Source: Candidatus Cloacimonadota bacterium
GTDB lineage: Bacteria; Cloacimonadota; Cloacimonadia; Cloacimonadales; TCS61
DNA length: 64,000 nt
NCBI GenBank assembly: GCA_021735645.1
Contig: JAIPGP010000004.1
Location: 3,225-67,224, forward strand
Reading direction: 5' to 3'
A program made the translations under genes and the position numbers. This document shows, piece by piece, positions 1,199 to 18,849 of this stretch (positions are counted from its first letter, which is position 1; every line of letters starts with the position of its first letter). The notes under the pieces are model-generated. The model was not told the DNA's origin. It did not search any database and worked only from the letters and a program-made list of their open reading frames with translations.

Positions 1199-2851
1199 CT
1201 ACGTAACAGTCACTATCTGCTTCCTGCCAGCCTTGCCAAAGTAAACCTGTATTTCACTACTTTTATAATAGTCAGAAACTGGTAAAAAAAATATCGCCTG
1301 CCGGATTTCCGCTGCTTTCAATCCATCTATATCATTTTTGTGCTGACTCAGTATCTGATAACCCTTCTTTCGCGCCTTAGCCAAGACCTCATTCTGCAAA
1401 AATACCGGATAATAACTGCTCCTGGACTGCCCGCACCAGTCAATTCTTAAATGGTCCAGCAATTCTTCCCTGCCGATTATATTCAGCGTCATCACCATAT
1501 CAACCAAGGCAATAGCACATCTCTCCCAGTCCCGCATCCGCAAATCAAGCCCCAGCTGCTGATAGTATCCCGCTAAACCTCTCAGCAGTAACCAGCCACT
1601 GATCTCTTTTTCTGTGAGCAATACAGTCATTGCCCTCTTAAACCTGCCGGAATTATAATAAATATCCAGTACAGCTTCCACCTGGCGCACTTTTCCCAGA
1701 TCCGCCCAACTCATTAGCTTGGTTTGCAAAACCTGATAGGGAGCTTTTACCTGATAGATAATTTCATGTTCAGAAACCAGGCTTTCCATCTCAGTTCCTG
1801 CCAGTATCTTCAAAAAACCTAACTGCAAATGACCACTGTCTAATTTTATCACGTCATCAAATCCTGCTGCCAGAGAATCTATATCCTCTCCCGGCAATCC
1901 AGCGATCAGATCAAGATGAATATGAATATTGCCCAGCTCTTTTATTCTTAAAATATTCTCTTTCACTTTTGCCCAATCCATCTGCCGGTGTATCAGCTTT
2001 CCTGTTTCGCTATTCAAAGTCTGAATCCCGATCTCAAACCGAAATCTGCCAGAAGGAATAGCAGATAATACCGCAAAATCTTCCTCACCTAATAACTCCG
2101 GGTGTATCTCAAAGTGAAATCCCGTCTCACTTTCAGGATAGGCTTTATATAGCTCAGCTATCTTCTGCCAGATCTGCCGTGACCTTGCTGGTTTAGCATT
2201 AAATGTCCTGTCCACCAGCTTGATGTGAGCATATCCTCCCCGGATAAATTGTTCCAACTCTATATAAACCAGTTGTATTGGTCGAAACTGTAATTTCTGA
2301 TCACTTCTGGATGACAGGCAATAGGCACAGCGAAACGGACAGCCCCGTGAGGTTTCATAATAAAAATAGCGACTATCCTTTCCTTCTATGTCCAAATGCT
2401 CATATGGAAATGGCAATTCTGCGATACTTACTGCTTTTCCCGGCACTATCCCTTTCAACCTGCCATTTTCATCAGCTATTATCTCTGCTATCACACCTTC
2501 CCCAGCACCTGTAACCACATAATCCAGGCACTCAAATTCCGCCAGCCACTTCTCCGCTTTATAACTCACCTCCGGTCCTCCGGCTATAAAACGTGTAGAT
2601 TCTACCAGTCTGCCCAGATCAGTCAGTATTGATTTTATCTGCTCCACATTCCAGATATAAATACTGAAAGCTATGTAATCTGCCTGCCGGCTCAAAAGGT
2701 CTTCGATAATATCCAGTTGCGGCTGATTTATATTGTATTCACAAAGTTCTACTTCTATATCCTGCCCCTGCAACACTGCCTGCAGATAATACAGTGCCAG
2801 GCTGGTATGCGTATATCGCGCATTCAACGTGGTTAATACTAATTTCTTCAT
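1199..2851 (-). CDS. B12-binding-domain radical SAM protein (DUF4080-type C-terminus)
   Basis: 550 aa. The N-terminal MKKLVLTTLNARYTHTSLALYYL region is typical of cobalamin-binding radical SAM enzymes. CxxxCxxC cluster motif in ETSRGCPFRCAYCLSS. Overlaps the upstream gene by 4 nt. Confidence 0.85.
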   Translation of the reverse strand: MKKLVLTTLNARYTHTSLALYYLQAVLQGQDIEVELCEYNINQPQLDIIEDLLSRQADYIAFSIYIWNVEQIKSILTDLGRLVESTRFIAGGPEVSYKAEKWLAEFECLDYVVTGAGEGVIAEIIADENGRLKGIVPGKAVSIAELPFPYEHLDIEGKDSRYFYYETSRGCPFRCAYCLSSRSDQKLQFRPIQLVYIELEQFIRGGYAHIKLVDRTFNAKPARSRQIWQKIAELYKAYPESETGFHFEIHPELLGEEDFAVLSAIPSGRFRFEIGIQTLNSETGKLIHRQMDWAKVKENILRIKELGNIHIHLDLIAGLPGEDIDSLAAGFDDVIKLDSGHLQLGFLKILAGTEMESLVSEHEIIYQVKAPYQVLQTKLMSWADLGKVRQVEAVLDIYYNSGRFKRAMTVLLTEKEISGWLLLRGLAGYYQQLGLDLRMRDWERCAIALVDMVMTLNIIGREELLDHLRIDWCGQSRSSYYPVFLQNEVLAKARKKGYQILSQHKNDIDGLKAAEIRQAIFFLPVSDYYKSSEIQVYFGKAGRKQIVTVT

Positions 2852-3558
2852 TTACTGAATAAGGCTTTTGCCCGTTTAAGGTCTTCAGGAAAATCTATTT
2901 CTATTACAGCAGCGTCACCTGTAGATATTGCCATGATCTCTATACCGCCACAAAACTTGTTAACTGCATATTCAAAATAATTATTATGTTGCTGAGCTTC
3001 TACTCCCAGCTCCAGAAATTTCACCATTCTGCCCAACACTTCCTTCCGGAAACAAGCTATCCCGATAAATTCACCCGCACACTCTTCCAGACTGAGTTCT
3101 TTGCCAATTGCGGTAACATATCCCGCTTCATTGATGATCACTTTCACCTCTTCTGCTCCGCAGACTTTCATCTCAACCAGTATTGAGCTGACAGGATTAT
3201 CCAGCAGCATAGGCAGCAGCTTCTCTTCAAAAAGCACATCTCCATTAAAATAAAGCGTGTCTTTATCTAAAAATTCCCGCGCCAGAAATAATGAATAAAG
3301 TGTATTAGTAACAGCAAAATCGGGATTGATCACAAATATTACCTGCTCAGGTGATAATATCTCCAGCACATGCTCCTTCATTTCTGCCTGTCGATAACCA
3401 ATCACGATCACAAAATGCATCACCCCATTTTGCAGACATTTTTCTATCTGATAATGTATGACCGATTTATCAGTGATCTTAAGCATTGGCTTCGGCAGCC
3501 CTCCCGTCAAAGAATTGAGTCTGCGTCCCATACCCGCTGCTAAAATTATTGCCTGCAT
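2848..3558 (-). CDS. sugar-phosphate/phosphocholine nucleotidyltransferase family protein (LicC/GlmU N-terminal-like)
   Basis: 236 aa. N-terminal ILAAGMGRRLNSLTGGLPKPML matches the GxGxR...KP NTP-transferase signature. AGAGGG lies upstream of the ATG. 4-nt overlap with 1199..2851. Confidence 0.8.
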   Translation of the reverse strand: MQAIILAAGMGRRLNSLTGGLPKPMLKITDKSVIHYQIEKCLQNGVMHFVIVIGYRQAEMKEHVLEILSPEQVIFVINPDFAVTNTLYSLFLAREFLDKDTLYFNGDVLFEEKLLPMLLDNPVSSILVEMKVCGAEEVKVIINEAGYVTAIGKELSLEECAGEFIGIACFRKEVLGRMVKFLELGVEAQQHNNYFEYAVNKFCGGIEIMAISTGDAAVIEIDFPEDLKRAKALFSK

Positions 3559-4522: not shown

Positions 4523-7500
4523 TTAATGTAGCAATAACATTTTTTTGTGCTCAGAGAATACTCCATTCGCTTTAAGCGCATAACAATAAACTCCGGCACC
4601 AACTTTAATATTACTGCTATTGCGTCCATCCCAGATTATTTCTCCACACCGCTTTTCTTCAGGATTCAAAACATAGCTCATCACTTTTTGTCCCTTGATG
4701 TTATATATAGCAATTTCTGCCTCGCTGATATCATCTTGCAATGCATATTCTATTACTGTCCCTGTCCTCATATTGTTAGTTGCAAAAAATGGATTGGGAT
4801 AGTTTTGATTAATTATGTTATGAGAGATAATATCTTCTCCCGTACCTGTTCCATTATAAACTACAGTAACTGTTATTGGAATTGTAAGTTCCGGGTATTC
4901 GGGATGATCAGTTACCTCCAGTATTAGATTCGTTGCATATACATGATTCAGTTCCAGATAAGAAGCATCAACCTGCAGTATCAAATTTTCGCTTTCTTCA
5001 CCTTCAATCTCCAGTTCACTATCTTCCAGGCTAATCCCTGGTACCACGGAAAGCTGATGAGTTACATTCTCCTGTTGTAGCGTTACTTCCAAGGTTTCAT
5101 GAACCAGATCATCCCAGCTATTAGGATCATCAAATCTCCAATAAGCTATTAGATCTTCATCACTGGGGTCTACTACTTGACTCATGTAGGCATTGATTTC
5201 CTGTTCTGTACGAACATCACTCCAAAAGCGAACTTCATCCATTGCACCATTCAATTTAGCCTTAACAGCACCACTATACTGATGAGCACCCAGATCAATA
5301 TGAGCTACACCAGTAGTGTAGTTACCTGATTCATTATTTCCTGCATGATCTACTTCTTCACCATCAATATATAGATAAATATCGTCATCATCTACCGTAA
5401 CTGCATAATGATGCCATATTCCCAAATCAGGGGCATCAGCAGCCAGTTCGGTACTGGTGGTATTGGGATAAGAATATCCATTAATAACGAATTTAGTCTC
5501 ATCATCCCCTGTTCTGACAAAAAAGCATATCACAGCACCAGATAATCCGGTTGCATTATCTTTTCTCTGTTCAAATAGAGTATTAGTTGTCCATGTTCCA
5601 AAGCCGTCCCCATCAACTCTTACCCAGGCTTCAATGGTAAAATCCTCATCAGTAAGCAGACATTGATCAAGTGACAAAAATCCACCATAAAAATCCGCAC
5701 AATCATTATAACAACCTTCTAAATGAGCTGAAACTTCTATATTTTCCTCGCCGATATTACTGATACTGATTGGGATATCTGTTATTTCATCAATTAGTAC
5801 GGAAAAATCTGTAATTTCTTGTACTTCAATTTCAGGAGGATCTATAACGGTACCTACTACAGGAATTTCAATCTCATCATTAGTAAAAGAATTGCTGTTA
5901 ATTGTTATTGATCCATCAAATTCCCCGTTTTCGTCGCTTTCATAAGTAAGTACCATGTCTACAGTTTCACCTGGGTCAAGGTTTACCTCTGGAAAATCAC
6001 ATGTAAGACCAGTGCAGTATATATCAATTCCCCTAAGTGACAATTCTCCTGAACCGATATTTTCAATCTCCACTACATACTCTTTCCCATAATCATTGAA
6101 AACATCTCCAAAATCAATCGTTTCTTCAGCAATATAAATTTCAGGGACTAAAACTTCCATAACTGAAATATAATCCCAACTCATTCCATTACATTGAAAA
6201 TTAAGATTAAATCTTACCGTTTCCTGAATTGGAAAATCCTCACTGAGATCGAATGAAAGACCAGTAATATCTTCTTCCAGATATCCTGCAGCTATTGTAG
6301 TAACTGTGATTTCGCTGGTTGTCAAATCAACAAATTCTTCATGATCACATGATAAAGTAATGTCAATATCCCCGGTGGCTTCATCTCCGAAATTCAAGAG
6401 ATCAATAGAAAGATCGATTGTTTCACCTGGCAATACAATTTCAAGTTGGTTTTCATCGTAATAATGCAAATCATCCAGTATCAGCCAGCAGGAATCTTCC
6501 GGTAAAGTAGCTCCGCTGATAAGTAAAGCAGTTTCATCATCAAGATCATCTCCAGTTTCAAAATAGTCATTATCAAATGTATATTGAAGCCCTACTGTTC
6601 CTGTCTGGTCTTCAATACCGATTGTTGAATATTGACCATGGTCTGCAGTACCACCATTATAAGAGCCAACATTGACATTATTAAATGTCTTATACTGATA
6701 TTTCATTTGATTATTTCCATTGGAAGTGGGATAATAAGCTCTGTCATAGATGATTAGTTCAAAGGTCTCTTCGCTAGTACTATTATAATCATTTATCAGA
6801 TCATCCCATTCGACAACAAATATATGATCGTTTGCATTGTAATAAGCGTATACTCCCGAATTTGCATCACCTACCAGATCATCCCAGAATACAGCTATCA
6901 TTGGTGACACTCCTCCATCACCGGGAATCGGTCTGTTCATATATGATACACTCTCCGTATAACCAGGAGCTACCCAGCCATTTGAGCAAACAGTTAATTC
7001 ATCATAATTTTGACCATAAAAACGAAATTCGAATGGAAGATTTACCTGACATGATGAGCCTTGATCACTTCCATTGATTAGATCTATAGGTAAAGCTGTG
7101 GTTGTGTTTATTTCTATCCAGCTATAATTAACTGTTTGATATCCGGTATCATATTCATCGTAAATACAATATCCAAATTCATCTGGCCCTGCAGGATCAC
7201 TTGCACCGGGAGTTCCTATTGACTGGACAACTTCTATCTCCTGCAGGAATCCCGCTGCATTGGATAATATTAAGGTGAATATTGAACCAGTTTCTGCAAT
7301 GAACTCATCAGGAATAACAATAGTGAAAGGCGTTACTGATTCATAAATCTCCTCCGGGTCAAGATCTCCCACATAACAGGAGCTTGGTGAAATAGTTATT
7401 AAGTTACTGGTACTGGCTAGTTCCAGATTTATACCATTAATCTCATAATCACCCGTATTTTCTATTTCATAATCAAAATATACTGTTTCTCCGGGTTCTG

Positions 7501-9637
7501 GAATATTATTATTATTATCTGAAAATTCATAATCATTTAGCGTTAATTCCAGAAATGTTAGTGGTACAATATATGAGTCTGTGTAGTCACGAAATTCTGC
7601 TGGTGCAATATTGATGCTTATACTGCATTCAGATAGATCTCCACTCCCAAGATAATTTATTGTGATGTCATCTAGAGAAGCAGTTAACCCTGCACCAATC
7701 GAAGCGATCGTTATATTTCCATCTTCAATTGTTATTTCGTCTGAAATACTCTCTACACTTACTTCTATCTGGTAAATAGTATTAATGCTATTATTAACCA
7801 GATCAAAGGTTAATTCTCCTGCTTCTCCTGGCTCAAAACTTCCATTAATGCTTACATCATCATAAGCCAGATTAGTTATTTCCAGAGTGTGGTTAAGATC
7901 CAGAGAAATATCTTCCTGCACTGGAATGTAATTTCTACCGCTAACAGTCAGTTTAAATTCATCAGAAGTACATCCTGAAATATCAAAGAAAGCATATCCG
8001 TTTTCATCTGTGAAACTAAAATACTGTTCATCATAGGTGTCATTATAAAGACATGCATATAAGCCTTCTAATGCGTAGTTATTGTCGTTTTCTGCATAAA
8101 TAATAATGCTGTTTTGATCAATTGAGTATGCCGCTTCGCATTCAACCACTAGCTCTTGTGGTGCTCCTATCCAGATTTCTTCTGAAGGATCACCCATCAA
8201 GTTACAATAGTGATTTAATTTTACAGTTTGATTATCCGGATTAGTTGGATAACTCTCCCATAATGAAACTTTCCCTCTTGTATGGGCGGCTCCCATTGTT
8301 TTTAAGTCCTCTGCATATAATCCATAAGCAACTCCTTGAGTAAAACTGTTATTTAAACAAGTATTTGTCAGATCGTGTGCTGCCCCTATAGCTCCGATCC
8401 CCCCCCCTACATTTCCGATCGTTCCGGCACGAAGAAATGACTCACTACAACTACAATCATCTACGGCAAAACTACCAGTATTGCAAGTAATTGTAACTAC
8501 AAAAGGCAACATCCAGCCATTATTTAACTCATTTGCTGTACTACTTTGCCAACCACTCATTCCAATTTCTCCTCGATAGGTGAAAAAGCTAACTCCCTGA
8601 TTAATAGCGTTCATCATTGAGATTAAATAAGAAGGAATATTGTCGTACACTTCAATAAAATTATAATAAGGATGATTATTAGTGATCAATTCTTTGATGT
8701 TTATACAGGTATAAACTGCGGATTCACCGGAATACGGCAACCCTTCAGGACCTGGATCTCCTGCCAAAAGAACCCGATTATACCAGCTTGTATCACCTAT
8801 ATATGGCTCTTTTTCATAATTAATTGTCTTATATAACATCACTTGCAATACATATAAACTGTTATAAGATAATCTTCCAATATGAACATCGCTGATATAG
8901 TCATTACCTGCCAGCAGTGTGTAAGGGTTGTCTCCTTCTACGGAATGACCTGTCCACGTTTCATACCAGGTGGGAATACCTAATTCACCTCCAACATCTC
9001 CGACCAGGCAAATATACTCTGGTGGCACATCCCAGTTATCGTAAGCATCTTGAATATATGCTTTAATTGCCGTATTAGTTGTTCCGGTCTCGGTTGTATT
9101 AGCTAAAGTTACCAGATAACCCCTTTGTTTTTTCCATTCTACAAGATAATTCATATTCTCCTCTATATCCTCATCATCAACATATATATAGAGAATACTT
9201 GGCTGGGCTGGTTCTATATCCCGCCAGTTCTCACGTTCTGCCATTTCGGGAAACATACTGATATACATCTGCAGAAATGATCCGGCCGGTTGCTGAAAAG
9301 TTATCCCCTCTTCGCTGCTACCGCTCAATTCTACACTTATAGTATCGCCACTGGCTAATCCAAATTCTGGTTCTACTGTAAGTACAGTAAATTCCATATC
9401 CCTCATCCTCATTACTGAACTTAATTCTGCAGAACAGTTCAGGGAATTATCTATGCTGTATCCTATCCCGTCTATTACGGGAAGAACATGATGATATATT
9501 GAATCGGTTTCTGAACTGTATAAAGGCATTCGCAGGATTGTCTTATCAACAGTAGCTTCAACTTGAAACTGATTGGTAATTGCACTTAAAAACAACGGTA
9601 ACAGTAATAGTATTGCCAGGTAAATTCTTTTATTCAC
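4523..9637 (-). CDS. giant gingipain-like (peptidase C25 family) surface protein with LamG-like module and T9SS C-terminal sorting domain
   Basis: 1704 aa. GTG start with AGGAGG upstream and a signal peptide. C25-type core (YICLVGDVGG..., DVHIGRLSYNS, FVVTITCNTGSF). Several Ig/CARDB-like segments. LamG/ConA-like segment (FTIEAWVRVDG...MDEVRFWSDVRTEQEI). C-terminus NYPNPF...IAIYNIKGQKV...WDGRN...GVYCYALKANG is typical of T9SS type-A CTDs. Confidence 0.8.
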   Translation of the reverse strand: MNKRIYLAILLLLPLFLSAITNQFQVEATVDKTILRMPLYSSETDSIYHHVLPVIDGIGYSIDNSLNCSAELSSVMRMRDMEFTVLTVEPEFGLASGDTISVELSGSSEEGITFQQPAGSFLQMYISMFPEMAERENWRDIEPAQPSILYIYVDDEDIEENMNYLVEWKKQRGYLVTLANTTETGTTNTAIKAYIQDAYDNWDVPPEYICLVGDVGGELGIPTWYETWTGHSVEGDNPYTLLAGNDYISDVHIGRLSYNSLYVLQVMLYKTINYEKEPYIGDTSWYNRVLLAGDPGPEGLPYSGESAVYTCINIKELITNNHPYYNFIEVYDNIPSYLISMMNAINQGVSFFTYRGEIGMSGWQSSTANELNNGWMLPFVVTITCNTGSFAVDDCSCSESFLRAGTIGNVGGGIGAIGAAHDLTNTCLNNSFTQGVAYGLYAEDLKTMGAAHTRGKVSLWESYPTNPDNQTVKLNHYCNLMGDPSEEIWIGAPQELVVECEAAYSIDQNSIIIYAENDNNYALEGLYACLYNDTYDEQYFSFTDENGYAFFDISGCTSDEFKLTVSGRNYIPVQEDISLDLNHTLEITNLAYDDVSINGSFEPGEAGELTFDLVNNSINTIYQIEVSVESISDEITIEDGNITIASIGAGLTASLDDITINYLGSGDLSECSISINIAPAEFRDYTDSYIVPLTFLELTLNDYEFSDNNNNIPEPGETVYFDYEIENTGDYEINGINLELASTSNLITISPSSCYVGDLDPEEIYESVTPFTIVIPDEFIAETGSIFTLILSNAAGFLQEIEVVQSIGTPGASDPAGPDEFGYCIYDEYDTGYQTVNYSWIEINTTTALPIDLINGSDQGSSCQVNLPFEFRFYGQNYDELTVCSNGWVAPGYTESVSYMNRPIPGDGGVSPMIAVFWDDLVGDANSGVYAYYNANDHIFVVEWDDLINDYNSTSEETFELIIYDRAYYPTSNGNNQMKYQYKTFNNVNVGSYNGGTADHGQYSTIGIEDQTGTVGLQYTFDNDYFETGDDLDDETALLISGATLPEDSCWLILDDLHYYDENQLEIVLPGETIDLSIDLLNFGDEATGDIDITLSCDHEEFVDLTTSEITVTTIAAGYLEEDITGLSFDLSEDFPIQETVRFNLNFQCNGMSWDYISVMEVLVPEIYIAEETIDFGDVFNDYGKEYVVEIENIGSGELSLRGIDIYCTGLTCDFPEVNLDPGETVDMVLTYESDENGEFDGSITINSNSFTNDEIEIPVVGTVIDPPEIEVQEITDFSVLIDEITDIPISISNIGEENIEVSAHLEGCYNDCADFYGGFLSLDQCLLTDEDFTIEAWVRVDGDGFGTWTTNTLFEQRKDNATGLSGAVICFFVRTGDDETKFVINGYSYPNTTSTELAADAPDLGIWHHYAVTVDDDDIYLYIDGEEVDHAGNNESGNYTTGVAHIDLGAHQYSGAVKAKLNGAMDEVRFWSDVRTEQEINAYMSQVVDPSDEDLIAYWRFDDPNSWDDLVHETLEVTLQQENVTHQLSVVPGISLEDSELEIEGEESENLILQVDASYLELNHVYATNLILEVTDHPEYPELTIPITVTVVYNGTGTGEDIISHNIINQNYPNPFFATNNMRTGTVIEYALQDDISEAEIAIYNIKGQKVMSYVLNPEEKRCGEIIWDGRNSSNIKVGAGVYCYALKANGVFSEHKKMLLLH

Positions 9638-9659
9638 TTTATCCTCCTATTTTACTGAT

Positions 9660-12600
9660 TTATTTGATTAAAATGATTTTCTTGGTAATATCAAGATTAC
9701 GAGCTTTCAATCTGGCAAAATACATTCCTGTACCTGTAGTTTTACCTGAAGCATTTCTTCCATCCCAGACTACAGAATGATTACCCTTATCAAGATGTTC
9801 ATTGACCAATTCCCTGACTAATTGCCCTTTGATATTATAAATACTGAGATTTATCTCAGTGTTTTCACTCAAATTAAATGAAAGGGTTGTCGAAGGGTTA
9901 AATGGATTAGGATAGCTTTTTAAAACTGTCACAGCATTCCCGAAATTATCTTCAGGTTTTTCTCTTGCTGATGAATAAACTTGAATATCATCAAAGGCAA
10001 ATCCGTCATAACCGATAATCTCATTATCGTAATGCTGAAATTTAACAACGTAATGTGAATTTAGATCCCAGGTAAGATTCGCTGCAATTGCTGATATATC
10101 CAACACTACATTTGTCCATGTTTTATCTTCATGATGCTCACCATTAATATCATAGATTTTTACAAAATTCAATCCCGCATCCTTAGAGAGGTAAATTCCG
10201 TCTCCAGCCTGATATTCATCAGCGAAATCTCTCCACCAGAAATCAAGTTCTACATCAGTTTCATCCTCAAGGTCCAAATATAAAAATGCCCTGTTATACA
10301 CATAAACTCCAGTTGTATCACTTGACATAACAAGATATTCCTGGCCCCCATGAGCATACCCATAATCAGAAGTGACTTCAATCAAACCATGTGCATCACT
10401 GGATTCAATATCCCAGTAATCATCCAGACCTGATTCGAAATCTATACTATAGGGAAGTTCAGCATAGTTTGAATAGATTTGAATATCATCAAAAGCAAAG
10501 CCATCGCTACTTATTGGAAAATTATCATACTGTTCGAATCTGATAATGAAATTATTGTTATATTCCAATCCTGCCGTGTTTATGGCTGCATCAAGATCTA
10601 TCACTATATTTTCCCAGCCACTGCCATTAATTAATGAATAAATTTTACTGAAGTGATCTCCATTGTCATCTGATATGAATACGCCATCATAATAATGAGT
10701 TTCATCATTAAATTCCCTCCACCAGAAATCAAGCATCAATCTGTCTTCGCCTGTGAGATTTAGATGTAAATCTGCCTTGTTGTATACATATTCATAGAAT
10801 GTATTTGAGTCCATGGTCATATGCTTTGTTCCACTATGAGGGGAATTATCTGAAGTAATTAAAATTCTGCCATAAGTCGGATCTGTCTCTAATCTCCAAT
10901 TCTTATCCAGCCCCTCCTCGAATCCCATCGAATAAGGTACTGTAGCATATGTCTTCAAATAACGGTATTCCCTTAAATCCTGAACGTAGTTTGCCCTGTT
11001 GGCTGTTATTATCCAGTTATCACCAACTGAGCTATTAAATTGATAAGGTGATATCCCACGTCCCTGGAGCACTCCTGCATCATTTATTACACTTACAAGT
11101 GCTTCAACAGGATTACCCTGAGTATCAAAAACTTCAAATTCAGGATATGGATTAACAGGGTCTACAATGATATTTTCACTAAGAACAAGTTGCCTGGCTT
11201 CATCAGACCATATACTCAAACTTGGATCTCCGAATAAGGTATAACCTAAATATATTAACCTGTACAAATACATTGAAAAGAGATTGTCATATAAATGCCA
11301 GGCTTCATTAGTTATATATCCCAAAGTATGTTCATCGTCAATAAACTGTAAATCCAGATATTCCTGTACTATAAATCGTGAAATACTCGGATAATCGGTT
11401 GCCGATGAGGCATAGATTGCTACTGGACCACCCACGTGATTAAAAAATACTTCATTGATACAATTCTCTGCATTATAAACCGTCACAGGTTCAGTTTCCA
11501 CCCAATAGTCTGACCAGCCATTGGGTCCCAAATTACAGATGACTTCGTCATATTCATCTCTGGCACAATCCTGGGAAGAACTTATATAATTCAAGTCCAT
11601 TGTTCTACATGATGCTATCCAGGTAAAGTATGTATTCCCAAGTGATTGTGGTAAAACATCTTCAAGCTGCAGGTAACTCTCTGCTGGAGTTGTGTAGAAA
11701 TATTTCCATTCACCATCATGGGCTCCACCTACCTGTAGTTCATAATAACAACTCCCTTCATCTACTTTATTAGTATTTATGCTTAAAGATTGCTTATGAT
11801 GACCAAAACCCTGCTCGTAGGCTGAATCGTTATGATCAAACTCACTGTCCAGGATAGTAAATTGATCCACTCCATGCCATACTCCATATAAAAATGAGTA
11901 ATCCCTGGACTGAAGCACATCTACCACTTCAGTAGCTGGACCATTTACTACGTCAACTAAATCTTCACATAACAATGATTCACAGCTAATAGTATTTCCA
12001 ACATGGGTCATTATATCACTCACAAAAGAATCGTATAGATCATAAGAATCATTTTTTGGTACATTTGTGGATATAAAACTCATCCTGGCAACATCATTAA
12101 TATCATTCGTCCGATAATTCTGGTACTTGGTTATATAATTTTCAACCTCAGTAGAATTACTTACTGGTAATCGACCCACGTAAAGATCAATATCAGTATC
12201 TATGTCCATTATATCATCATCCTGAGGCCAGACTGATAATACATTACTATAATAAAAATCGGTTGATGCAGTAATAGTACTTCCTAAATGGTCATATACT
12301 ATTTGATGCGACGGAACTAAATCAGTACTACCTCCGATTATCACATATTGCAAGCTTGGATATGTCGTTTTCCGGGCTGCCAGCCAGTTTCTTATTGCTG
12401 TAGAAGTTGAATCTGTGGTTGCTAATGTGACTACATCTGTCACTATTCCTTCTTCAGTCTTGATCTCTGCAAACTCTTCAAAATCATCTTCCAATGCATC
12501 AACCGTAATGATTACTAACTCTGCAGCAAGTGATCGGTTATCTCTCAACTCTTGATGATTAATTTTGTGCTCTGTATTCTCCATCGATGAAATTATGGTC

Positions 12601-12746
12601 TCTACATCGACTCTGTACTTATCAGGAATACTAATATCCTGATTACCAATTGTCTCTGCACATAATAAAGCCCCACTTAGAAGTCCAAATGTAATTGTGC
12701 AGATCAAAACTAAAAACCCATTCTTGTTAACTCTAATACTTGTCAT
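9660..12746 (-). CDS. gingipain-like (peptidase C25 family) surface protein with two MAM-like modules and T9SS C-terminal sorting domain
   Basis: 1028 aa with AGGAGG 7 nt upstream of the ATG. C25-type motifs (YVIIGGSTDLVP, STDFYYSN, LYVGRLPVSN, WHGVDQ, WIASCRT). Two about 175-aa repeats each end in GFAFDDIQ(I/V)YS. C-terminus SYPNPFNPSTTLSFNL...IYNIKGQLV...WDGRNASG...GMYFARLKA. 22 nt upstream of the next C25 gene. Confidence 0.8.
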   Translation of the reverse strand: MTSIRVNKNGFLVLICTITFGLLSGALLCAETIGNQDISIPDKYRVDVETIISSMENTEHKINHQELRDNRSLAAELVIITVDALEDDFEEFAEIKTEEGIVTDVVTLATTDSTSTAIRNWLAARKTTYPSLQYVIIGGSTDLVPSHQIVYDHLGSTITASTDFYYSNVLSVWPQDDDIMDIDTDIDLYVGRLPVSNSTEVENYITKYQNYRTNDINDVARMSFISTNVPKNDSYDLYDSFVSDIMTHVGNTISCESLLCEDLVDVVNGPATEVVDVLQSRDYSFLYGVWHGVDQFTILDSEFDHNDSAYEQGFGHHKQSLSINTNKVDEGSCYYELQVGGAHDGEWKYFYTTPAESYLQLEDVLPQSLGNTYFTWIASCRTMDLNYISSSQDCARDEYDEVICNLGPNGWSDYWVETEPVTVYNAENCINEVFFNHVGGPVAIYASSATDYPSISRFIVQEYLDLQFIDDEHTLGYITNEAWHLYDNLFSMYLYRLIYLGYTLFGDPSLSIWSDEARQLVLSENIIVDPVNPYPEFEVFDTQGNPVEALVSVINDAGVLQGRGISPYQFNSSVGDNWIITANRANYVQDLREYRYLKTYATVPYSMGFEEGLDKNWRLETDPTYGRILITSDNSPHSGTKHMTMDSNTFYEYVYNKADLHLNLTGEDRLMLDFWWREFNDETHYYDGVFISDDNGDHFSKIYSLINGSGWENIVIDLDAAINTAGLEYNNNFIIRFEQYDNFPISSDGFAFDDIQIYSNYAELPYSIDFESGLDDYWDIESSDAHGLIEVTSDYGYAHGGQEYLVMSSDTTGVYVYNRAFLYLDLEDETDVELDFWWRDFADEYQAGDGIYLSKDAGLNFVKIYDINGEHHEDKTWTNVVLDISAIAANLTWDLNSHYVVKFQHYDNEIIGYDGFAFDDIQVYSSAREKPEDNFGNAVTVLKSYPNPFNPSTTLSFNLSENTEINLSIYNIKGQLVRELVNEHLDKGNHSVVWDGRNASGKTTGTGMYFARLKARNLDITKKIILIK

Positions 12747-12937
12747 TCTAATACCTCCTGTTCTTTTTTATTTAATGACTATCCGTACAAATCCGCTTAA
12801 GTTATTTAGCTTGAATTTGCACAAGCCATGATTACTCTGTCATACTACTCATTCTCTGATATCCTCTATTCAACCTGGAATAGTATTTCCCTGATGCAAT
12901 CCGCTGCCATCTCCTGCTTTAATGATGAATGACAACA

Positions 12938-13510
12938 TTATTCCAATTGGATATATTCCGGTACCTCAAAATTCACATAATCATCAAATGATTTTATTAT
13001 GTGCCTTGAATCTCCCAATATTGATGCAACATAAACAATATTTTGATCGATTTCAATAGCTGTTGATATGTCTAACCCAAATATTACACTGGATAATTGC
13101 TGGGTATAATTATAATAGTAATCTTCACTATGTTTCACGTATCCTCTGTATAACCTGCCTTCGGTTACTCCGCTTTATAATTTTCTTGATATATCAGGAT
13201 TTCTAAGAATCCAGCTAAACACTTCTACATGATTTTCTAATACATATAGGATGTCATAAATATCTTGTCCATAGCTTAAATCTGGAATTATATCAGCAGC
13301 GATACTAGTTATATTGTTGTTTGTATATAAGGTGCTGTCTATCCAGGTTGCCGTTTCTCCGAAATCAGTTGAAGGATATAAACTATAGCCTGTTACAATA
13401 AATCCCAGAAAGTATATATCTCCAGCTTCAAACCAAAAGATTATCAATGTGTAGCAAAATAAATTTTCACTATTCATTAATAATAATAACTTCAATATTG
13501 ATTTTTTCAT
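12938..13510 (-). pseudogene. hypothetical ORF interrupted by one in-frame TAA (13175-13177)
   Basis: Track ORFs 13175..13510 and 12938..13138 are in the same frame. My translation across the gap is ...ISRKL*SGVTEGRLYRGYVKHSEDYYY... GGAGGGGGG lies upstream of the 13510 ATG. No family recognised. Confidence 0.3.
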
Positions 13511-14495
13511 CCCCCCTCCAAATGGGCAGATAAACCTAATAATTTCGCCTTGCTGTAAAACTTCTCAATATTTAATCAAATTCCGTTTTTTTCTCTTTTG
13601 TACTACATAACATATTTTTAATTCTGGTATGATACTGTCTAGATTATTTTTTTTTCTTGTACTTATTTTTTCCTCTGCTTTATTATAGTCTAATTTGATT
13701 ATGTTTCAGTCTTCTAAATATATCTATTCATACTGGACGTTGAACTGCCAATACTCTTATATATATTATCGAGTTTCAGATTTTTTTATTTGTTATCCCT
13801 ATGGACGTATTATCGATGTCAGGGTTTTTTGCTACAGATAATTTAGCACGTGTTAATAAATCATAGTCAATCCACCCAGCTAACCGGAAGTTTTGCATGG
13901 TGCTCCAGACAAGACTTATGATGACAATAAACTCCCAAAATATGTCTCAATTAAATTACATAATACATTCCCATTTAAATTGTTTTTCCTAAAATTAAGT
14001 CAGTGGTACGGCGTAGATGACAACCATTGCAAGGTGCAAAATCTTCGAATGGTCTGATATCTTCGCAATGATTGACTTCGCAACAGAACATTTAGGTCAT
14101 GCGATCTCAAAACCTTATTAAATAAACCGAACGTTCCGGCTTAGTTAATACATTTTACATTCTGTAACTGACTTATTTCTTCTTTTTTTTTGCCCCCTGA
14201 ACTGTTCTATTATTCGCTTAATTGCTGTCAGAAAATTATTTAAACTCATTTATCGTCCCTTACCTCACCCCCTGCACCCTGCCTGTGGGTTCCCTGCGGC
14301 TTCAAAGGACGATAATTCTACTTATAGCATCATAATATAACACTAGTTCTATAATTGGTCAATAAATATCACAGACAGACATATGGGTCTGCCCCCTTCT
14401 GCAAATCTCAAAATCCCAGCCAGCTTATAAGCATCAGGTGTTCTTAGCAACCAAAACAGGACTTCAGATTTATCTGGCAGGCTGCCACAAATTTC

Positions 14496-14948
14496 TTGCC
14501 GAATTATGTGCTCTTTTCTGAAGTGGTTTCAAGGGTATTAATCATGTGCAAAAGAGAAAAACTGGAGGATAAGTATTTCCTCCTGAACTTTGACCACACC
14601 TTCCTGGCAGCCAGTCTTCAGGAAGAAGCTCTGCTCTTTGGAGCAGATTCTCATGCCCCCTTTCTCTCTAATACCGTCCGTCAGTTTCAAGCCTTCAAAC
14701 CGGATTTTACCCTGAACCACCCGCTTGATCATCTTTCCGGTGGCGAAAACGCCATTCTGGCAGTGATCTTCTATTCCGCTCTGGTTCTGCATAAAAAGAA
14801 ACCACTCCATTTCCTGCTGCAAAACATTCTGGAATCACTTTCAACCTCTAACAGACATGCCCTGATAATATTGCTGACTGAATATCAGCAGCAGGCTATC
14901 TCCTATCACCTTCTGAGTAATAATGAGGTAATCTCTATAAATGAATAG
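14496..14948 (+). CDS. truncated, degenerate ABC-ATPase-like protein (signature motif present, no Walker A)
   Basis: 150 aa at most; an in-frame TAG at 14445-14447 blocks any N-terminal extension. LSGGE signature at 14733-14747. The Walker-B position reads HFLLQNILESLS, lacking the acidic D/E pair. Overlaps the next ORF by 8 nt. Confidence 0.55.
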   Translation: MPNYVLFSEVVSRVLIMCKREKLEDKYFLLNFDHTFLAASLQEEALLFGADSHAPFLSNTVRQFQAFKPDFTLNHPLDHLSGGENAILAVIFYSALVLHKKKPLHFLLQNILESLSTSNRHALIILLTEYQQQAISYHLLSNNEVISINE

Positions 14949-15510
14949 TCTTCTCCAGATCAAGCCAGGTAAACTGAAACTAAAAAACAGACCATTTATC
15001 TTTCAGCTTGATCAGCCTTTGAAAATCGCCTCTGATAGTGGCAAAATTCTTCTGCTGATCAAGGGTGACAATGGCAGTGGCAAAACCACTTTCCTGGAGC
15101 AGGTCATTATCCCTCACCTTAAGCAAAATAATATATTATTCCTCTTTAAAGGTCAGGATAATCACATTCAGAGTATTATAGACCGCTCTCTGGAAGCTAT
15201 TTTCTCCATCTCACATTCCGGGAAAAACCTTATTTCGCAAGTTTTTTTTAATGCTCCGGCAAAACATCCAGCGAAAAAAATCACTACTCCTACAGCAGAA
15301 GTGCTGCTGATGGATGAAACTGATAAACTGCTCTCATCCAGTGAATTTGATGATATTATCAAAAATCCTGATTATAAATTACTGATCCTCATCTCACATA
15401 ACCTCGATAATCCTGAATTTCAGCAGCATTTTAATCTCTTCCCCCGAAAATATTCTCTCACTATTGCAGGACAGTCTGCGGTGCGAACCGCCAGTTTTAC
15501 AAAATGCTGA
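14941..15510 (+). CDS. ABC-ATPase-like protein with Walker A/B and H-loop but no recognisable signature motif
   Basis: 189 aa. GDNGSGKT (15064-15087), VLLMDETDKL (Walker B) and LILISHN (H-loop-like). No LSGGQ-like segment before Walker B. Confidence 0.6.
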   Translation: MNSLLQIKPGKLKLKNRPFIFQLDQPLKIASDSGKILLLIKGDNGSGKTTFLEQVIIPHLKQNNILFLFKGQDNHIQSIIDRSLEAIFSISHSGKNLISQVFFNAPAKHPAKKITTPTAEVLLMDETDKLLSSSEFDDIIKNPDYKLLILISHNLDNPEFQQHFNLFPRKYSLTIAGQSAVRTASFTKC

Positions 15511-16103
15511 AGCTCATCAAACTTATCTGCCTGATTCTGATAATTATTACCTTTTTCATAATCACCGGCTTCATCTATTATGACAGGCTATTGCTGCACT
15601 CTATCATTCTCGGTGCAGTTCTCATCCTGCATTCCTGGAAATTCTCCCTGCGTCAATCCGGTGATATGATCCTCATTCTGCTGCCCTTTACCGTTACAAT
15701 ATTTATCTTTGGTCTTTTCTTTCAGCTGATCCACCTGCAAGGCAGAACTGACTGGCTCTATGACAGCCTGATAAAAGTAATATATTTCCCGGCTTCTTTC
15801 CTGTTCACAAAACTGCTCATCTCGCTGTTCACTTATCAAGACATCCTGGGGCTTCCCCTCAGAGGCGAACTGAAAACTGATATTATCTTCCTGCAGGTTT
15901 TCATCAAAAAAGCTTTTTATATTATGCCCAGACTGCAATTCTATATAAAGATGCACCCGCTCATTCAAGGCAAAAAGGGATTTTTGAAAAATTTCCTGAT
16001 ACTTTGTGCTTTTCCACTTTCGCTTTATATTTATTTAATAGATGAAGGCAATATTATTCGCCAAATATATCTAAACAGACTTTATCATCTGGAGGAATTA
16101 TGA
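15504..16103 (+). CDS. small polytopic membrane protein, possible EcfT/CbiQ-like transmembrane component
   Basis: 199 aa with about 5 hydrophobic helices. Its position between the ATPase-like genes and an S-component-like gene supports the call. Resemblance to the CbiQ coupling region is weak (IMPRLQFYIKMHPLIQGKKG). Confidence 0.45.
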   Translation: MLKLIKLICLILIIITFFIITGFIYYDRLLLHSIILGAVLILHSWKFSLRQSGDMILILLPFTVTIFIFGLFFQLIHLQGRTDWLYDSLIKVIYFPASFLFTKLLISLFTYQDILGLPLRGELKTDIIFLQVFIKKAFYIMPRLQFYIKMHPLIQGKKGFLKNFLILCAFPLSLYIYLIDEGNIIRQIYLNRLYHLEEL

Positions 16104-16630
16104 GAAAAAATACTGTATTTCAAACAATTATGATGATTGTGCTCATCATGGCTACTACTCTCCTGATTAAAATACCTCTGCCTACCCGGGGCTACTTTAA
16201 TTTCGGTGATGTTGCAGTAGTTTTTGCAGGCCTTACCCTGGGTGCCCCCATCAAAAAAAACGGCTTACGTATTGACAATGATCATGGCATCTGGCTGGCA
16301 TTTCTGGCTGGCGGAATTGGTTCTGCCCTGGCGGATGTAATTGGTGGCTTTGCTATTTTTGCCCCCATGACTTTTATCGCCAAAGCTCTCGAATGTGCCT
16401 GGGCTGCTCTTGCCAGCACTACTAAGGGTATGTTTCACTTTCTGGCTTTAGTATTAGGAGGCGCGTTTATGGTTCTCACTTATTACGCTTTTGAATCTCT
16501 CACTCCCAGTATTGGTTTGCAGGGTTCTTTCAGCGAAATAATTCCTAATCTCATCCAGGCTGCCGGAGGATTCCTGGGAGGTAAGATCATCTTCATCGCC
16601 AGTAGACAACTCCTCACCAAAGAAAAATAG
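16100..16630 (+). CDS. ECF-transporter S-component-like membrane protein
   Basis: 176 aa with about 6 TM helices. The GYFNFGDVAVVFAGLTLG motif resembles the GYhxhGD motif of the RibU/DUF1393-type S components (recalled from memory, not searched). ATGA overlap with the upstream gene. Confidence 0.6.
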   Translation: MRKNTVFQTIMMIVLIMATTLLIKIPLPTRGYFNFGDVAVVFAGLTLGAPIKKNGLRIDNDHGIWLAFLAGGIGSALADVIGGFAIFAPMTFIAKALECAWAALASTTKGMFHFLALVLGGAFMVLTYYAFESLTPSIGLQGSFSEIIPNLIQAAGGFLGGKIIFIASRQLLTKEK

Positions 16631-16669
16631 ACCAGTTGCCCATCACGTAGCACCTGAGCATTTCGCATT

Positions 16670-16705
16670 GTCCATAATGTCCATATTGTCCATTGTGTCC
16701 ATAAA
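16670..16705. repeat. tandem 9-bp array, 4 units (GTCCATAAT GTCCATATT GTCCATTGT GTCCATAAA)
   Basis: Read directly. It begins 40 nt after the stop of 16100..16630 and is preceded by CATTTCGCATT. Confidence 0.9.
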
Positions 16706-16812
16706 AATATGACCCTTTACTGGTAATAAATCTCATAGAGTCATTATAATGTTGACGAATGAATTGGGTCAAATTTTGTTGCATGGAAATAATATTATAA
16801 TGTGAGGTAAGG

Positions 16813-18849
16813 ATGAGTAACAATCCATTAATTGAATTAAAGCGCGTAGGTAAATATGGTGCTATACCCTTTAATGAGATCACACAGGAACATTTTTTGC
16901 CGGCGATCGAGCATGGCTTGCAAGAAGCAGAAGCTAAACTGGAAACGATAAAGAACAACCCGGATAAGGCAAATTATGATAATACCTTACGGGCTATGCA
17001 GGAGCTTTCCGAAGTATCGGATATAGCTTCAACAGTATATTTTAATCTGATGAGCTGCGAATCTGATGATGAATTTAAGCAGCTTGCCCAGGAAATAGCC
17101 CCAAAATTATCGCTATTCTCCAGCAAAATGATCTCTGATCCAATACTTTTTGAACGCGTGAAATCTGTATATGAACGTCGTGAAACTATAGGACTCACCA
17201 GTCAGCAGCGTCGCTTAGTAGAGAAGCAGTATCGTGGATTTATTCGTAATGGTGCCTTGCTGAGTGATGAAGATAAACAGAAGCTGCAGGAAATTGATGT
17301 GGAGCTTTCGCAGCTTGGTCCCAAATTCGGACAAAATGTTCTGGGTGCTACCAATGCCTGGGAAAAGCATGTAATTGATGCTGAAGCAGTAGCTGGTATC
17401 CCGGAAAATGCTTTGAAGGCAGCCGCTTTTAGAGCCAGACAAAAAGGATATAAAGAAGGCTGGTTATTTAACCTGCAGATTCCCAGCGTATTGCCGGTAC
17501 TCACTTATTGCAGCAATCGGGCTTTACGGAAAGACGTTAATAGTGCTTATTCCAGCCGAGCTTATAAAGATGATTTTGATAACCAGGAAATTCTTAAACG
17601 TATCTCCTGTCTCAGATACAAAAGAGCAGAGCTTCTGGGTTACAAGAGCCATGCCGAAATAGTTCTGGAAGAGCGCATGGCACAAACCCCGGAAACTGTT
17701 ATGAGTTTTCTGGACAGATTATATGATGCCAGCATCGAGCCGGCTAAGATGGAGCTGGCAGAAATGCACGCCTTTGCCAGAGAACTGGATGGCATAGAAA
17801 AAATGAAGCCGTGGGACTTGATCTATTACGCTGAAAAGCTGAAACAGCTGAAATTTGATTATAATGCTGAGGAACTGCGTCCTTATTTTAAGATGGAAAA
17901 TGTGGTAAGCGGAATATTCAAAGTAGCAGAAAAACTATATGGCATAAGATTCAATTCTGTAGATGATGTACCCCGCTATCATGAGGATGTGCAGGTGTTT
18001 GAAGTTACAGAAGCTGATGAGAGCTATATTGGTCTGCTCTATCTGGATTTGTTCCCCCGCGAAACCAAGCGAGGAGGAGCCTGGATGACAACATTTCAAA
18101 CCCAGGGATACAGCTATGGTAAAGATAGGCAACCTCACGTATCTATTGTTACCAATTTTACTCCTTCAACCGAAGACACTCCTTCTCTGCTGAGTTTAGA
18201 TGAAGTAACTACTCTCTTCCATGAATTTGGTCATTCGCTACATGGCTTGCTTTCCAATGTGAATGAAGCTGCCCTGGCAAGCCCAAATGTCTATTGGGAC
18301 TTTGTGGAACTGCCTTCTCAGATCATGGAAAACTGGGCAACTGAGAAAGAAACCCTAGCATTGTTTGCTTATCATTATGAAACGGGAGAATTGATCCCTG
18401 ATGATCTGATCGAGAAGGTAAAAAAATCGAAATCTTTTAATGCCGGCAGCAACTCCTTGAGACAAATAGGTCTGAGTTTACTGGATATGGCATGGCATAA
18501 TGGCAATACCTGTGATATAGAAGACGTATATACCTATGAAAAGAAGGCTATAGCTAAAACCAGCCTCCTGCCCCCTCTGGCTGGAAGAAATACTTCCTGT
18601 TCATATTCACATGTATTTGCCGGTGGTTATTCTTCCGGATATTATTCTTATAAATGGGCAGAAGTTCTGGAAGCAGATGCTTTTCAACTTTTCCTGGAAA
18701 AAGGGATATTCGATAGCGATACTGCCGCTGCATTCCGTAAAAACGTTCTGGCAGCGGGTAATACAGAAGAGCCTATGGACTTGTTCGTTAAATTCAGAGG
18801 ACGTAAACCAGATCCTGATGCTTTGCTGAAAAGAGTGGGTCTAAAATAA
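16813..18849 (+). CDS. dcp: M3-family zinc metallopeptidase (peptidyl-dipeptidase Dcp / oligopeptidase A type)
   Basis: 678 aa. HEFGHSLH zinc motif with a downstream E. The length and overall pattern (ALRKDVNSAY, YYAEKLK, GGAWM) are typical of Dcp/PrlC. Confidence 0.85.
   Translation: MSNNPLIELKRVGKYGAIPFNEITQEHFLPAIEHGLQEAEAKLETIKNNPDKANYDNTLRAMQELSEVSDIASTVYFNLMSCESDDEFKQLAQEIAPKLSLFSSKMISDPILFERVKSVYERRETIGLTSQQRRLVEKQYRGFIRNGALLSDEDKQKLQEIDVELSQLGPKFGQNVLGATNAWEKHVIDAEAVAGIPENALKAAAFRARQKGYKEGWLFNLQIPSVLPVLTYCSNRALRKDVNSAYSSRAYKDDFDNQEILKRISCLRYKRAELLGYKSHAEIVLEERMAQTPETVMSFLDRLYDASIEPAKMELAEMHAFARELDGIEKMKPWDLIYYAEKLKQLKFDYNAEELRPYFKMENVVSGIFKVAEKLYGIRFNSVDDVPRYHEDVQVFEVTEADESYIGLLYLDLFPRETKRGGAWMTTFQTQGYSYGKDRQPHVSIVTNFTPSTEDTPSLLSLDEVTTLFHEFGHSLHGLLSNVNEAALASPNVYWDFVELPSQIMENWATEKETLALFAYHYETGELIPDDLIEKVKKSKSFNAGSNSLRQIGLSLLDMAWHNGNTCDIEDVYTYEKKAIAKTSLLPPLAGRNTSCSYSHVFAGGYSSGYYSYKWAEVLEADAFQLFLEKGIFDSDTAAAFRKNVLAAGNTEEPMDLFVKFRGRKPDPDALLKRVGLK

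Follow-up and report, generated by a model that had tools for sequence, protein, structure and literature searches.

A four-gene locus of a Cloacimonadota bacterium probably encodes a miniaturised ECF-type importer with one ATP site shared by two ATPase-like proteins

The DNA analysed here is a 64,000-nucleotide stretch from a Candidatus Cloacimonadota bacterium (assembly GCA_021735645.1, contig JAIPGP010000004.1, positions 3,225 to 67,224 of the forward strand), the whole of which we call the window. It contains a module of four short genes, g1 to g4, which we read as a probable energy-coupling factor-type (ECF-type) importer. Two of its proteins are related to the nucleotide-binding domains (NBDs) of ATP-binding cassette (ABC) proteins, the third is probably a transmembrane coupling subunit (T), and the fourth is an S component. 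Re-deriving the coordinates gave the same layout as the original prediction, which was made from the sequence alone: four co-directional open reading frames (ORFs) on the + strand with overlaps of 8, 7 and 4 nt. The genes and motifs are as follows, in window coordinates.

14496..14948, + strand: g1 (ORF1), 150 aa from a TTG codon, the longest possible product; a P-loop-less half NBD with, in order, Q-loop strand, short helical subdomain, LSGGE signature, dead Walker B strand, D-loop helix and H-strand
14733..14747, + strand: LSGGE, the ABC signature of g1, read from the sequence
14941..15510, + strand: g2 (ORF2), 189 aa; a complete RecA-like ABC core in miniature, with a beta subdomain
15064..15087, + strand: Walker A GDNGSGKT of g2 (G42, N44, G45, G47 and K48 invariant)
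15154..15156, + strand: Q-loop Gln72 of g2, with Gln77 five residues on
15304..15318, + strand: Walker B LLMDE of g2 with catalytic Glu126, aligned with the Walker B of a canonical ECF ATPase
15397..15399, + strand: H-loop His153 of g2, present in 95/95 sequences
15504..16103, + strand: g3 (ORF3), a polytopic membrane protein of 199 aa that is probably an EcfT-like coupling subunit in shortened, highly divergent form
16100..16630, + strand: g4 (ORF4), 176 aa; an ECF S component of the PF07155 family with GYFNFGD and GG-GSALAD motifs
14487..14501, + strand: the 15-nt 5' motif CACAAATTTCTTGCC, just upstream of g1 and nearly invariant in four Stygibacter-type loci

The frame of g1 is closed on its 5' side by an in-frame TAG at 14445-14447, as had been noted, and 150 aa is its maximum length. 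The real start is probably the ATG at 14544, which would give a protein of 134 aa, because the genes called in four related species encode 131-135 aa and because of their alignment. None of the possible starts of g1 gains a Walker A motif (P-loop). In the Stygibacter relatives, the next gene 5' of g1 is divergent, encodes an NTP-transferase or a B12-radical-SAM protein and lies only ~150 bp away, so that a lost N-terminal half would find no room. The g1 ORFs that look too long in high-GC relatives turned out to be start-codon artefacts devoid of a P-loop, and an extension of g1 by TGA recoding was rejected because translation table 11 fits the long ORFs of the window cleanly.

Little of this module can be recognised from its annotation. 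RefSeq lists the products of g1, g2 and g3 as 'hypothetical protein' (WP_205217679, WP_205217678 and WP_205217677) and orthologues of g4 as 'ECF transporter S component' (WP_205217676). Neither Pfam nor NCBIfam holds a model for g1-g3, and single-sequence scans gave sub-threshold matches to P-loop and SMC proteins only. Automatic labels in IMG read 'ABC-type thiamine transport system ATPase subunit' and 'KaiC/GvpD/RAD55 family RecA-like ATPase'. Full-text literature searches, whose coverage leaves out many subscription papers, returned no description of such a module.

The g1 protein resembles one half of an ABC NBD. The predicted LSGGE signature is present and, across 92 unique homologous sequences on which the following column counts for g1 are based, its Ser is found in 92/92, the two Gly in 90/92 and 92/92, and the closing Gln or Glu in 92/92. 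The reported lack of a Walker A extends to the family, with the pattern G-x4-G-K-[ST] occurring in 0/80 homologues. The Walker B had been described as dead and placed at LLQNILES; this string is indeed present and the expected residues are lost, but alignment with a canonical NBD shifts the exact dead pair to N110-I111 of 'FLLQNIL'. The position of the catalytic Glu is occupied by L, V, I, F or A in 91/92 sequences and by Pro in the other one, never by an acidic residue. The Walker B Asp position holds N, H or D, the Q-loop position D, E or N and never Q, and no His is conserved at the H-loop position. Apart from the signature S-G-G, the columns of g1 that are invariant or nearly so over at least five phyla are limited to the D-loop Leu (79/92) and E44 of an 'L-x-[ED]-E' element (92/92). 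The protein has a signature, a Walker B strand, a D-loop and a helical subdomain homologous to those of an NBD, and lacks a Walker A and a catalytic carboxylate of its own.

Profile and fold comparisons agree with the proposal that g1 derives from an ABC-type NBD. A profile of 29 g1 sequences matched SMC3 (E 5.5e-7) and ABCB1 (E 1.5e-6) among PDB sequences over the region of the signature, Walker B and D-loop; a four-sequence profile had given marginal matches to SMC and Rad50 only. The reference used to align g1 and g2 was the 446-aa duplicated ATPase that the genome of the window encodes beside a canonical T subunit, located via PF02361. The g1 profile is colinear with residues 89-199 of the first NBD of this ATPase (hhalign 95%, E 3.9e-8), from the Q-loop 'QNP' to the H-loop 'VEHN', and residues 1-88, including the Walker A, have no counterpart in g1. 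In a large library search, the closest full-length relatives of g1 were the second NBDs of duplicated ATPases of 430-500 aa. The alignment-based AlphaFold2 (AF2) single-chain model of g1 (pLDDT 87, pTM 0.83) shows a helix, a strand, two helices, the signature helix, a strand, a helix and two further strands, and its best Foldseek matches, with a probability of 1.0 and a query-normalised TM of 0.53-0.62, are CbiO (5x3x/5x41) and EcfA/EcfA' (4huq chains A and B, 4hlu, 7nnt, 8bms), and also 4mki. ASCE (additional strand, catalytic E) ATPases have the strand order 5-1-4-3-2. Judging from the predicted secondary structure, g1 would retain the contiguous strands 2 (Q), 3 (Walker B) and 4 (H) and would have lost the edge strands 1 (P-loop) and 5, a clean truncation consistent with a stably folded half domain. 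In one protein of 176 aa (P0084), a g3-like N-terminus runs into a g1-like C-terminus, probably as an artefact of assembly or of a frameshift, though a rearranged locus could also account for it.

The g2 protein has the reverse set of features. The motifs GDNGSGKT, LLMDETD and SHN are all found in the window as predicted, and in 95 family members the G, N, G, G and K of the Walker A (94/94), the Asp and Glu of the Walker B (95/95) and the H-loop His are kept without exception. Gln72 and Gln77 are each present in 93/95 sequences, a Q-x4-Q spacing that we take to be that of the ECF 'Q-helix' (FQNPxxQ), as a lead rather than a test. The predicted absence of a signature holds for the whole family, as no conserved column exists where one would lie (Q77 to D125). 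Walker A, Q-loop, Walker B Asp-Glu and H-loop succeed one another as in a canonical NBD, on a RecA-like core whose N-terminal part is a beta subdomain, and both the LSGGQ signature and the alpha-helical subdomain are missing. Pfam ABC_tran remains below its cut-off for g2; the family profile nevertheless supports the descent from an ABC-type NBD that had been claimed for it, matching ABCF1 in the PDB at E 6.4e-8, as well as ABCD1 and EcfA, and aligning (hhalign 91%) with the canonical ECF ATPase of the same genome from Walker B to H-loop. A word-index search with the g2 profile, saturated by Walker A words, returned only the close family and three weak canonical ABC ATPases. In the AF2 single-chain model, an N-terminal antiparallel beta subdomain is followed by the P-loop strand and helix, the Q-strand directly after them, one long helix, a linker, the Walker B strand, the H-strand and C-terminal strands, with no helical subdomain. 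In keeping with this absence, its fold neighbours are the RecA-like KaiC and ATPases of the ABC class in which the helical subdomain is small or absent (MutS, ABCF1, YbbA and HrtA).

The conserved motifs of g1 and g2 are therefore exactly complementary, as the original prediction held for the single pair and as 92 g1 and 95 g2 unique sequences now indicate: g1 lacks the Walker A, the Q-loop Gln, the catalytic Glu and the H-loop His, and g2 lacks the signature. Neither protein carries the full set of motifs found on each of the two ATPase subunits or domains of an ECF transporter.

The module is widespread and kept in one order. In Candidatus Stygibacter metagenome-assembled genomes (MAGs), g2 homologues of 189-196 aa share 57-78% identity with that of the window, each within the same four-gene cluster, and weak g2 matches were obtained in 53/232 Cloacimonadota genomes. 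With iterated hidden Markov models, 29 of the 30 Cloacimonadota loci that were fetched contained all four genes in the same order, with sizes of 113-150 aa for g1, 162-189 for g2, 199-215 for g3 and 155-176 for g4. The g3 profile found exactly one copy in 83/232 Cloacimonadota genomes, belonging to 12/66 genera, essentially all of one family plus the genus of the window. A scan of one genome per species located 80 loci via the S component, in Cloacimonadota, Desulfobacterota (Desulfomicrobium, Desulfovibrionales, Desulfobacterales and the cultured Desulforhopalus vacuolatus DSM 9700), Chlorobium, Candidatus Moduliflexus, Spirochaetia and Bacteroidales. The order g1-g2-g3-g4 is kept in 77 of them; two of the three exceptions lie at contig ends and the third is a solitary S gene. 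The g1 profile, run against 1.84 billion representative sequences, gathered 64 clusters at E<1e-10, almost every one 100-150 aa long, and two more distant short matches (E 2.5e-11 and 6.7e-9) proved on inspection to come from the same module. The four genes are contiguous and overlapping, and no gene resembling a solute-binding protein (SBP) is conserved nearby, as in the clusters of group I ECF transporters.

Pairwise dN/dS values within the Stygibacter group are well below 1 (g1 0.12-0.27, g2 0.08-0.19, g3 0.05-0.12, g4 0.04-0.09), so all four genes appear to be under purifying selection. The g1 and g2 subtype of Stygibacter (DFxHxF, SGGE, NILESLS, GKT) is closer to those of Desulfobacterota and Chlorobium (P0091-P0105, L069, L070, L075) than to those of other Cloacimonadota, and the module is absent from the other genera of the family to which the window belongs. 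This likeness and this absence suggest that the Stygibacter-type module was acquired horizontally.

The assignment of g4 leaves little doubt. It carries the predicted GYFNFGD motif, matches PF07155 above cut-off (E 1.1e-13), and its family, with 26 invariant columns, has chain S of 4HZU, the ECF-HmpT complex of L. brevis, as its sole PDB match (E 4.9e-13). It thus belongs to the ECF S-component superfamily.

The identification of g3 as a short T-like protein stands in part. Its length (199 aa) fits, and a comparison of 92 g3 sequences with 22 canonical T sequences of the order gave a colinear alignment of columns 38-220 with 32-224 (hhalign 75%, E 2.6e-5), where the controls (g3 against g4, T against g4) gave 0.2%; but Pfam CbiQ detects nothing, nor does any other Pfam or NCBIfam model. 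The signal is solely one of family against family, since single canonical T sequences aligned with g3 by hhalign gave nothing. In this low-confidence alignment, the C-terminal 'IDNRI' of g3 ('LNRL' in the window) falls on 'ELRGF', the second motif of T. We conclude that g3 is probably a shortened and very divergent EcfT. Fusions of g3 to g4 provide independent support for a physical complex of the two: T-S fusions of 366-374 aa are encoded at L024 (1925-3022), L030 and L031 and on a Stygibacter-type contig (P0264). The fusion seems fixed in genus g30 of the Cloacimonadaceae, where open g3 frames of 366-485 aa extend through most genomes; over that genus and the Stygibacter-like contig, the fused protein measures 366-416 aa. 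In one genome (G082, 99% complete) the module is present and PF02361 has no match, so that there g4 cannot rely on a canonical T. In the genome of the window, PF02361 finds two other genes. One, of 238 aa, follows the 446-aa duplicated ATPase (G000:C151, L037 131-2187), and the second CbiQ-family T gene (G000:C130, L036 1405-2139) lies beside what looks by eye like a TonB-dependent-receptor gene.

In ABC proteins, the P-loop of one subunit faces the signature of the other. Only a g1:g2 pairing would set a signature opposite a P-loop here, because a g2:g2 pair has no signature and a g1:g1 pair binds no ATP. Our favoured reading, which we regard as probable, is that the four genes form a dedicated, group-I-like miniaturised importer of the ECF type, powered by a g1:g2 heterodimer with a single composite ATP site; a 1:1 head-to-tail dimer, ATPase activity and transport are inferred. 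The g1 protein would be the remnant of a second ECF ATPase that has lost its C-terminal extension and, at the N-terminus, ~88 residues comprising the beta subdomain and the strand and helix of the P-loop. It would have kept the sheet of Q-, Walker B- and H-strands, the D-loop, LSGG(Q/E) and the helical subdomain, the part that normally receives a coupling helix of T. The g2 protein would be a small, catalytically complete ABC core. Paired head to tail as EcfA and EcfA' are, the two would hold one ATP clamped by the P-loop of g2 on one side and the g1 signature on the other, and Glu126 and His153 of g2 would hydrolyse it. The second site of a normal dimer would be physically deleted, a step beyond degeneracy. 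Closing and opening of this one-and-a-half NBD dimer, driven by ATP, would be relayed through g3 and would topple or release g4, as in canonical ECF transporters.

The same complementarity could be read as a split NBD: in a 2:2 complex, each g1 would dock in cis on a g2 and supply its helical subdomain and signature, and two such composites would form a two-site motor. What g2 misses is exactly what g1 has; SMC and Rad50 set a precedent for building an ABC head out of separate N- and C-terminal segments, and the C-terminal halves of their heads are among the first PDB matches of g1. We nevertheless consider this arrangement unlikely. The Q-, Walker B- and H-strands and the D-loop helix of g1 would duplicate elements that g2 already has, g1 is predicted to fold confidently alone (pTM 0.83), and the loss bears specifically on its acidic Walker B residues, the pattern of a second NBD that has degenerated. 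Moreover, a canonical T subunit, which we take to have two coupling helices, would offer room for two NBD bodies, not four.

About equally improbable, in our view, is a motor made of g2 only, monomeric or homodimeric, with g1 a non-catalytic adaptor or regulator whose signature is a fossil. The helical subdomain and Q-helix region that g1 keeps form the surface that normally binds T, and some P-loop ATPases devoid of a helical subdomain, such as the MutS-like fold matches of g2, do use other geometries. A fossil, however, would not be expected to have its S-G-G among the best-conserved columns of g1 over at least five phyla, and a g2 homodimer has a signature at neither site.

As for the substrate, a B6 vitamer or a related pyrimidine or pyridine micronutrient is our leading guess, a tentative one. 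The hints are weak: the relationship of g4 to HmpT, the pattern of pathways to pyridoxal 5'-phosphate (PLP), and the neighbourhood of one locus. The ECF-HmpT transporter of 4HZU was later reported to have pyridoxamine as its substrate (PMC4860826). Among eight high-quality Cloacimonadaceae genomes that bear the module, six (G004, G022, G082, G093, G034 and G027) have neither PdxS nor PdxJ and all keep a PdxK/ThiD-family kinase; the loss of both routes to PLP with retention of the kinase points to B6 auxotrophy with salvage. At L018, a probable pyridoxal-kinase-type gene, recognised by eye only, lies directly upstream of the module. Two results speak against these hints: the genome of the window and its congener do have PdxJ, and clustering of the neighbours over the 80 loci revealed no metabolic partner conserved across phyla, only lineage-specific ones (GNAT, YhhN, a TadA-like deaminase, EamA, an RluA-like protein and a peroxiredoxin).

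This lack of a conserved metabolic neighbour, the lack of an Rfam element upstream and the failure of g1-g3 to match any curated family would also suit an ATP-dependent membrane complex that reuses an S-like fold for something other than import, e.g. sensing, export or cofactor handover. We judge such a role less likely than either of the two other motor arrangements, because g4 is clearly homologous to an S component proven in transport, because the A-A'-T-S order, the tight coupling and the T-S fusion are, as we understand them, typical of group I ECF transporters, and because the six Cloacimonadaceae deprived of both PLP routes need some vitamin importer. That the module is merely a frameshifted, truncated or pseudogenised EcfA/EcfA' pair, as the small sizes and missing motifs might suggest in a single genome and as had been named beforehand as the case that would overturn the prediction, can be rejected, as the truncated form recurs in more than 90 unique sequences from at least five phyla, none with a P-loop, with intact frames, dN/dS well below 1 (0.12-0.27 for g1) and no room for more in the ~150 bp upstream of g1 in the relatives.

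Several observations nevertheless weigh against a single-site ECF-type importer. The g2 model is of moderate confidence (pLDDT 76, residues 93-117 disordered) and its best fold matches are MutS, ABCF and KaiC rather than ECF ATPases. The hhalign probability of g3 as a T subunit is only 75%. Its profile has no match among PDB sequences, and with PF02361 no genome gives a g3 match at E<=1e-5, while 50/61 genomes of the order yield canonical T proteins. In the same low-confidence alignment, the region of the first Ala-Arg-Gly ('LRG') coupling motif of T is a gap in g3, and the Arg of g3 aligned to the second motif becomes Leu in one subclade. No natural g1-g2 fusion was encountered among the loci and homologues surveyed. 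Lastly, the solitary S gene, of a Desulfovibrionales MAG (L076 2929-3504), is of this S subtype and has no g1-g3 within 3 kb; by eye, it comes after an apparent trigger-factor gene.

The DNA upstream of the module holds few recognisable elements. In the window, the ~450 bp upstream of g1 contain no ORF and no Rfam match, and a permissive Rfam scan of 13000-17000 found no riboswitch or leader, its sole match being a chance small RNA. The intergenic DNA around CACAAATTTCTTGCC is unconserved in the four Stygibacter-type loci, and this motif may be a candidate promoter, operator or leader. The codons from it to the ATG are unusually conserved (S-E-[VL]-x-[ST]-G-V-[LF]), although an in-frame TGA precedes them in relatives. 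At L001, L002 and L004, the module adjoins a divergent pair encoding an NTP-transferase and a B12-binding radical-SAM/DUF4080 protein. In the window, ~11 kb part it from the corresponding pair (1199-3558); the intervening DNA, which over 4523-14495 includes two giant genes (4523-9637 and 9660-12746) and ~1 kb of ORF-free DNA, looks like an insertion relative to the related species. On the 3' side, a fifth ORF follows the S gene on the same strand at L131 (2132-2644, 171 aa, no Pfam match), L070, L075 and L098, loci labelled as Bacteroidales, Chlorobium, a 'Stakelama'-labelled MAG and one unlabelled metagenome contig, and could encode an accessory subunit.

Whether an ABC motor needs both of its ATP sites, and what a degenerate site does, is a long-running question that has been approached mostly with mutants and with exporters whose dead site still binds nucleotide. 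The module would amount to a natural experiment, a system kept by selection in several phyla although its second site has been wholly removed, and a test case for how little such a motor needs. The evidence is evenly poised on the broader proposition that one complete NBD and a P-loop-less half domain suffice for ECF-type translocation through a T subunit of ~200 residues, perhaps with a single coupling motif, which would make this widespread motor the minimal ABC importer known and an unrecognised micronutrient route, possibly for vitamin B6, in anaerobes such as Cloacimonadaceae and Desulfobacterota. Since three of the four proteins are called hypothetical and have no family model, the vitamin-uptake capacity of these anaerobes would be under-annotated. 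With ~650-700 residues in total and cultured carriers (Desulforhopalus vacuolatus DSM 9700, Desulfomicrobium spp.), the complex is attractive for structural and single-molecule work on ECF toppling, and the covalently tethered S component of the g3-g4 fusions bears on how far S must move during transport.

Compared with known systems, the module shares with ECF transporters of group I (CbiMNQO, 5x3x/5x41; BioMNY) and group II (ECF-HmpT, 4HZU; ECF-FolT, 4HUQ) an ATPase-ATPase-T-S operon with no SBP gene, an S component homologous to chain S of 4HZU, a g1 fold nearest to CbiO, EcfA and EcfA', and a weakly EcfT-like g3. It differs in size and motif content: g1 (~115-150 aa) and g2 (~160-190 aa) are far from the 245-284 residues of the solved ECF ATPases, g3 (~200 aa) is invisible to PF02361 and may carry one coupling motif only, and the whole complex is about one third smaller.

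SMC and Rad50 heads likewise contain a stretch of signature, Walker B and D-loop with no P-loop of its own, which explains why their C-terminal halves (SMC_N, SMC, Rad50) were the first matches of g1. However, their partner segment has no Walker B or H-loop, so that the two halves make one NBD, whereas g2 is a complete core; moreover, the module has no coiled coil and stands in a membrane-transporter context.

A third comparison is with the heterodimeric ABC transporters that have one degenerate and one consensus site, such as TM287/288, TAP1/2, CFTR and LmrCD/BmrCD. As in these, one subunit combines a good signature with a dead Walker B and the other a good Walker A, Walker B and H-loop with a bad signature, a distribution that gathers all defects in one site and leaves the other canonical. 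In those heterodimers, however, every NBD is complete and the degenerate site still binds nucleotide, whereas g1 has lost the P-loop and its strand; moreover, they are exporters, and their membrane architecture is different. The best-supported reading of this previously unannotated module is thus an ECF transporter merged with the single-consensus-site logic of the asymmetric ABC heterodimers.

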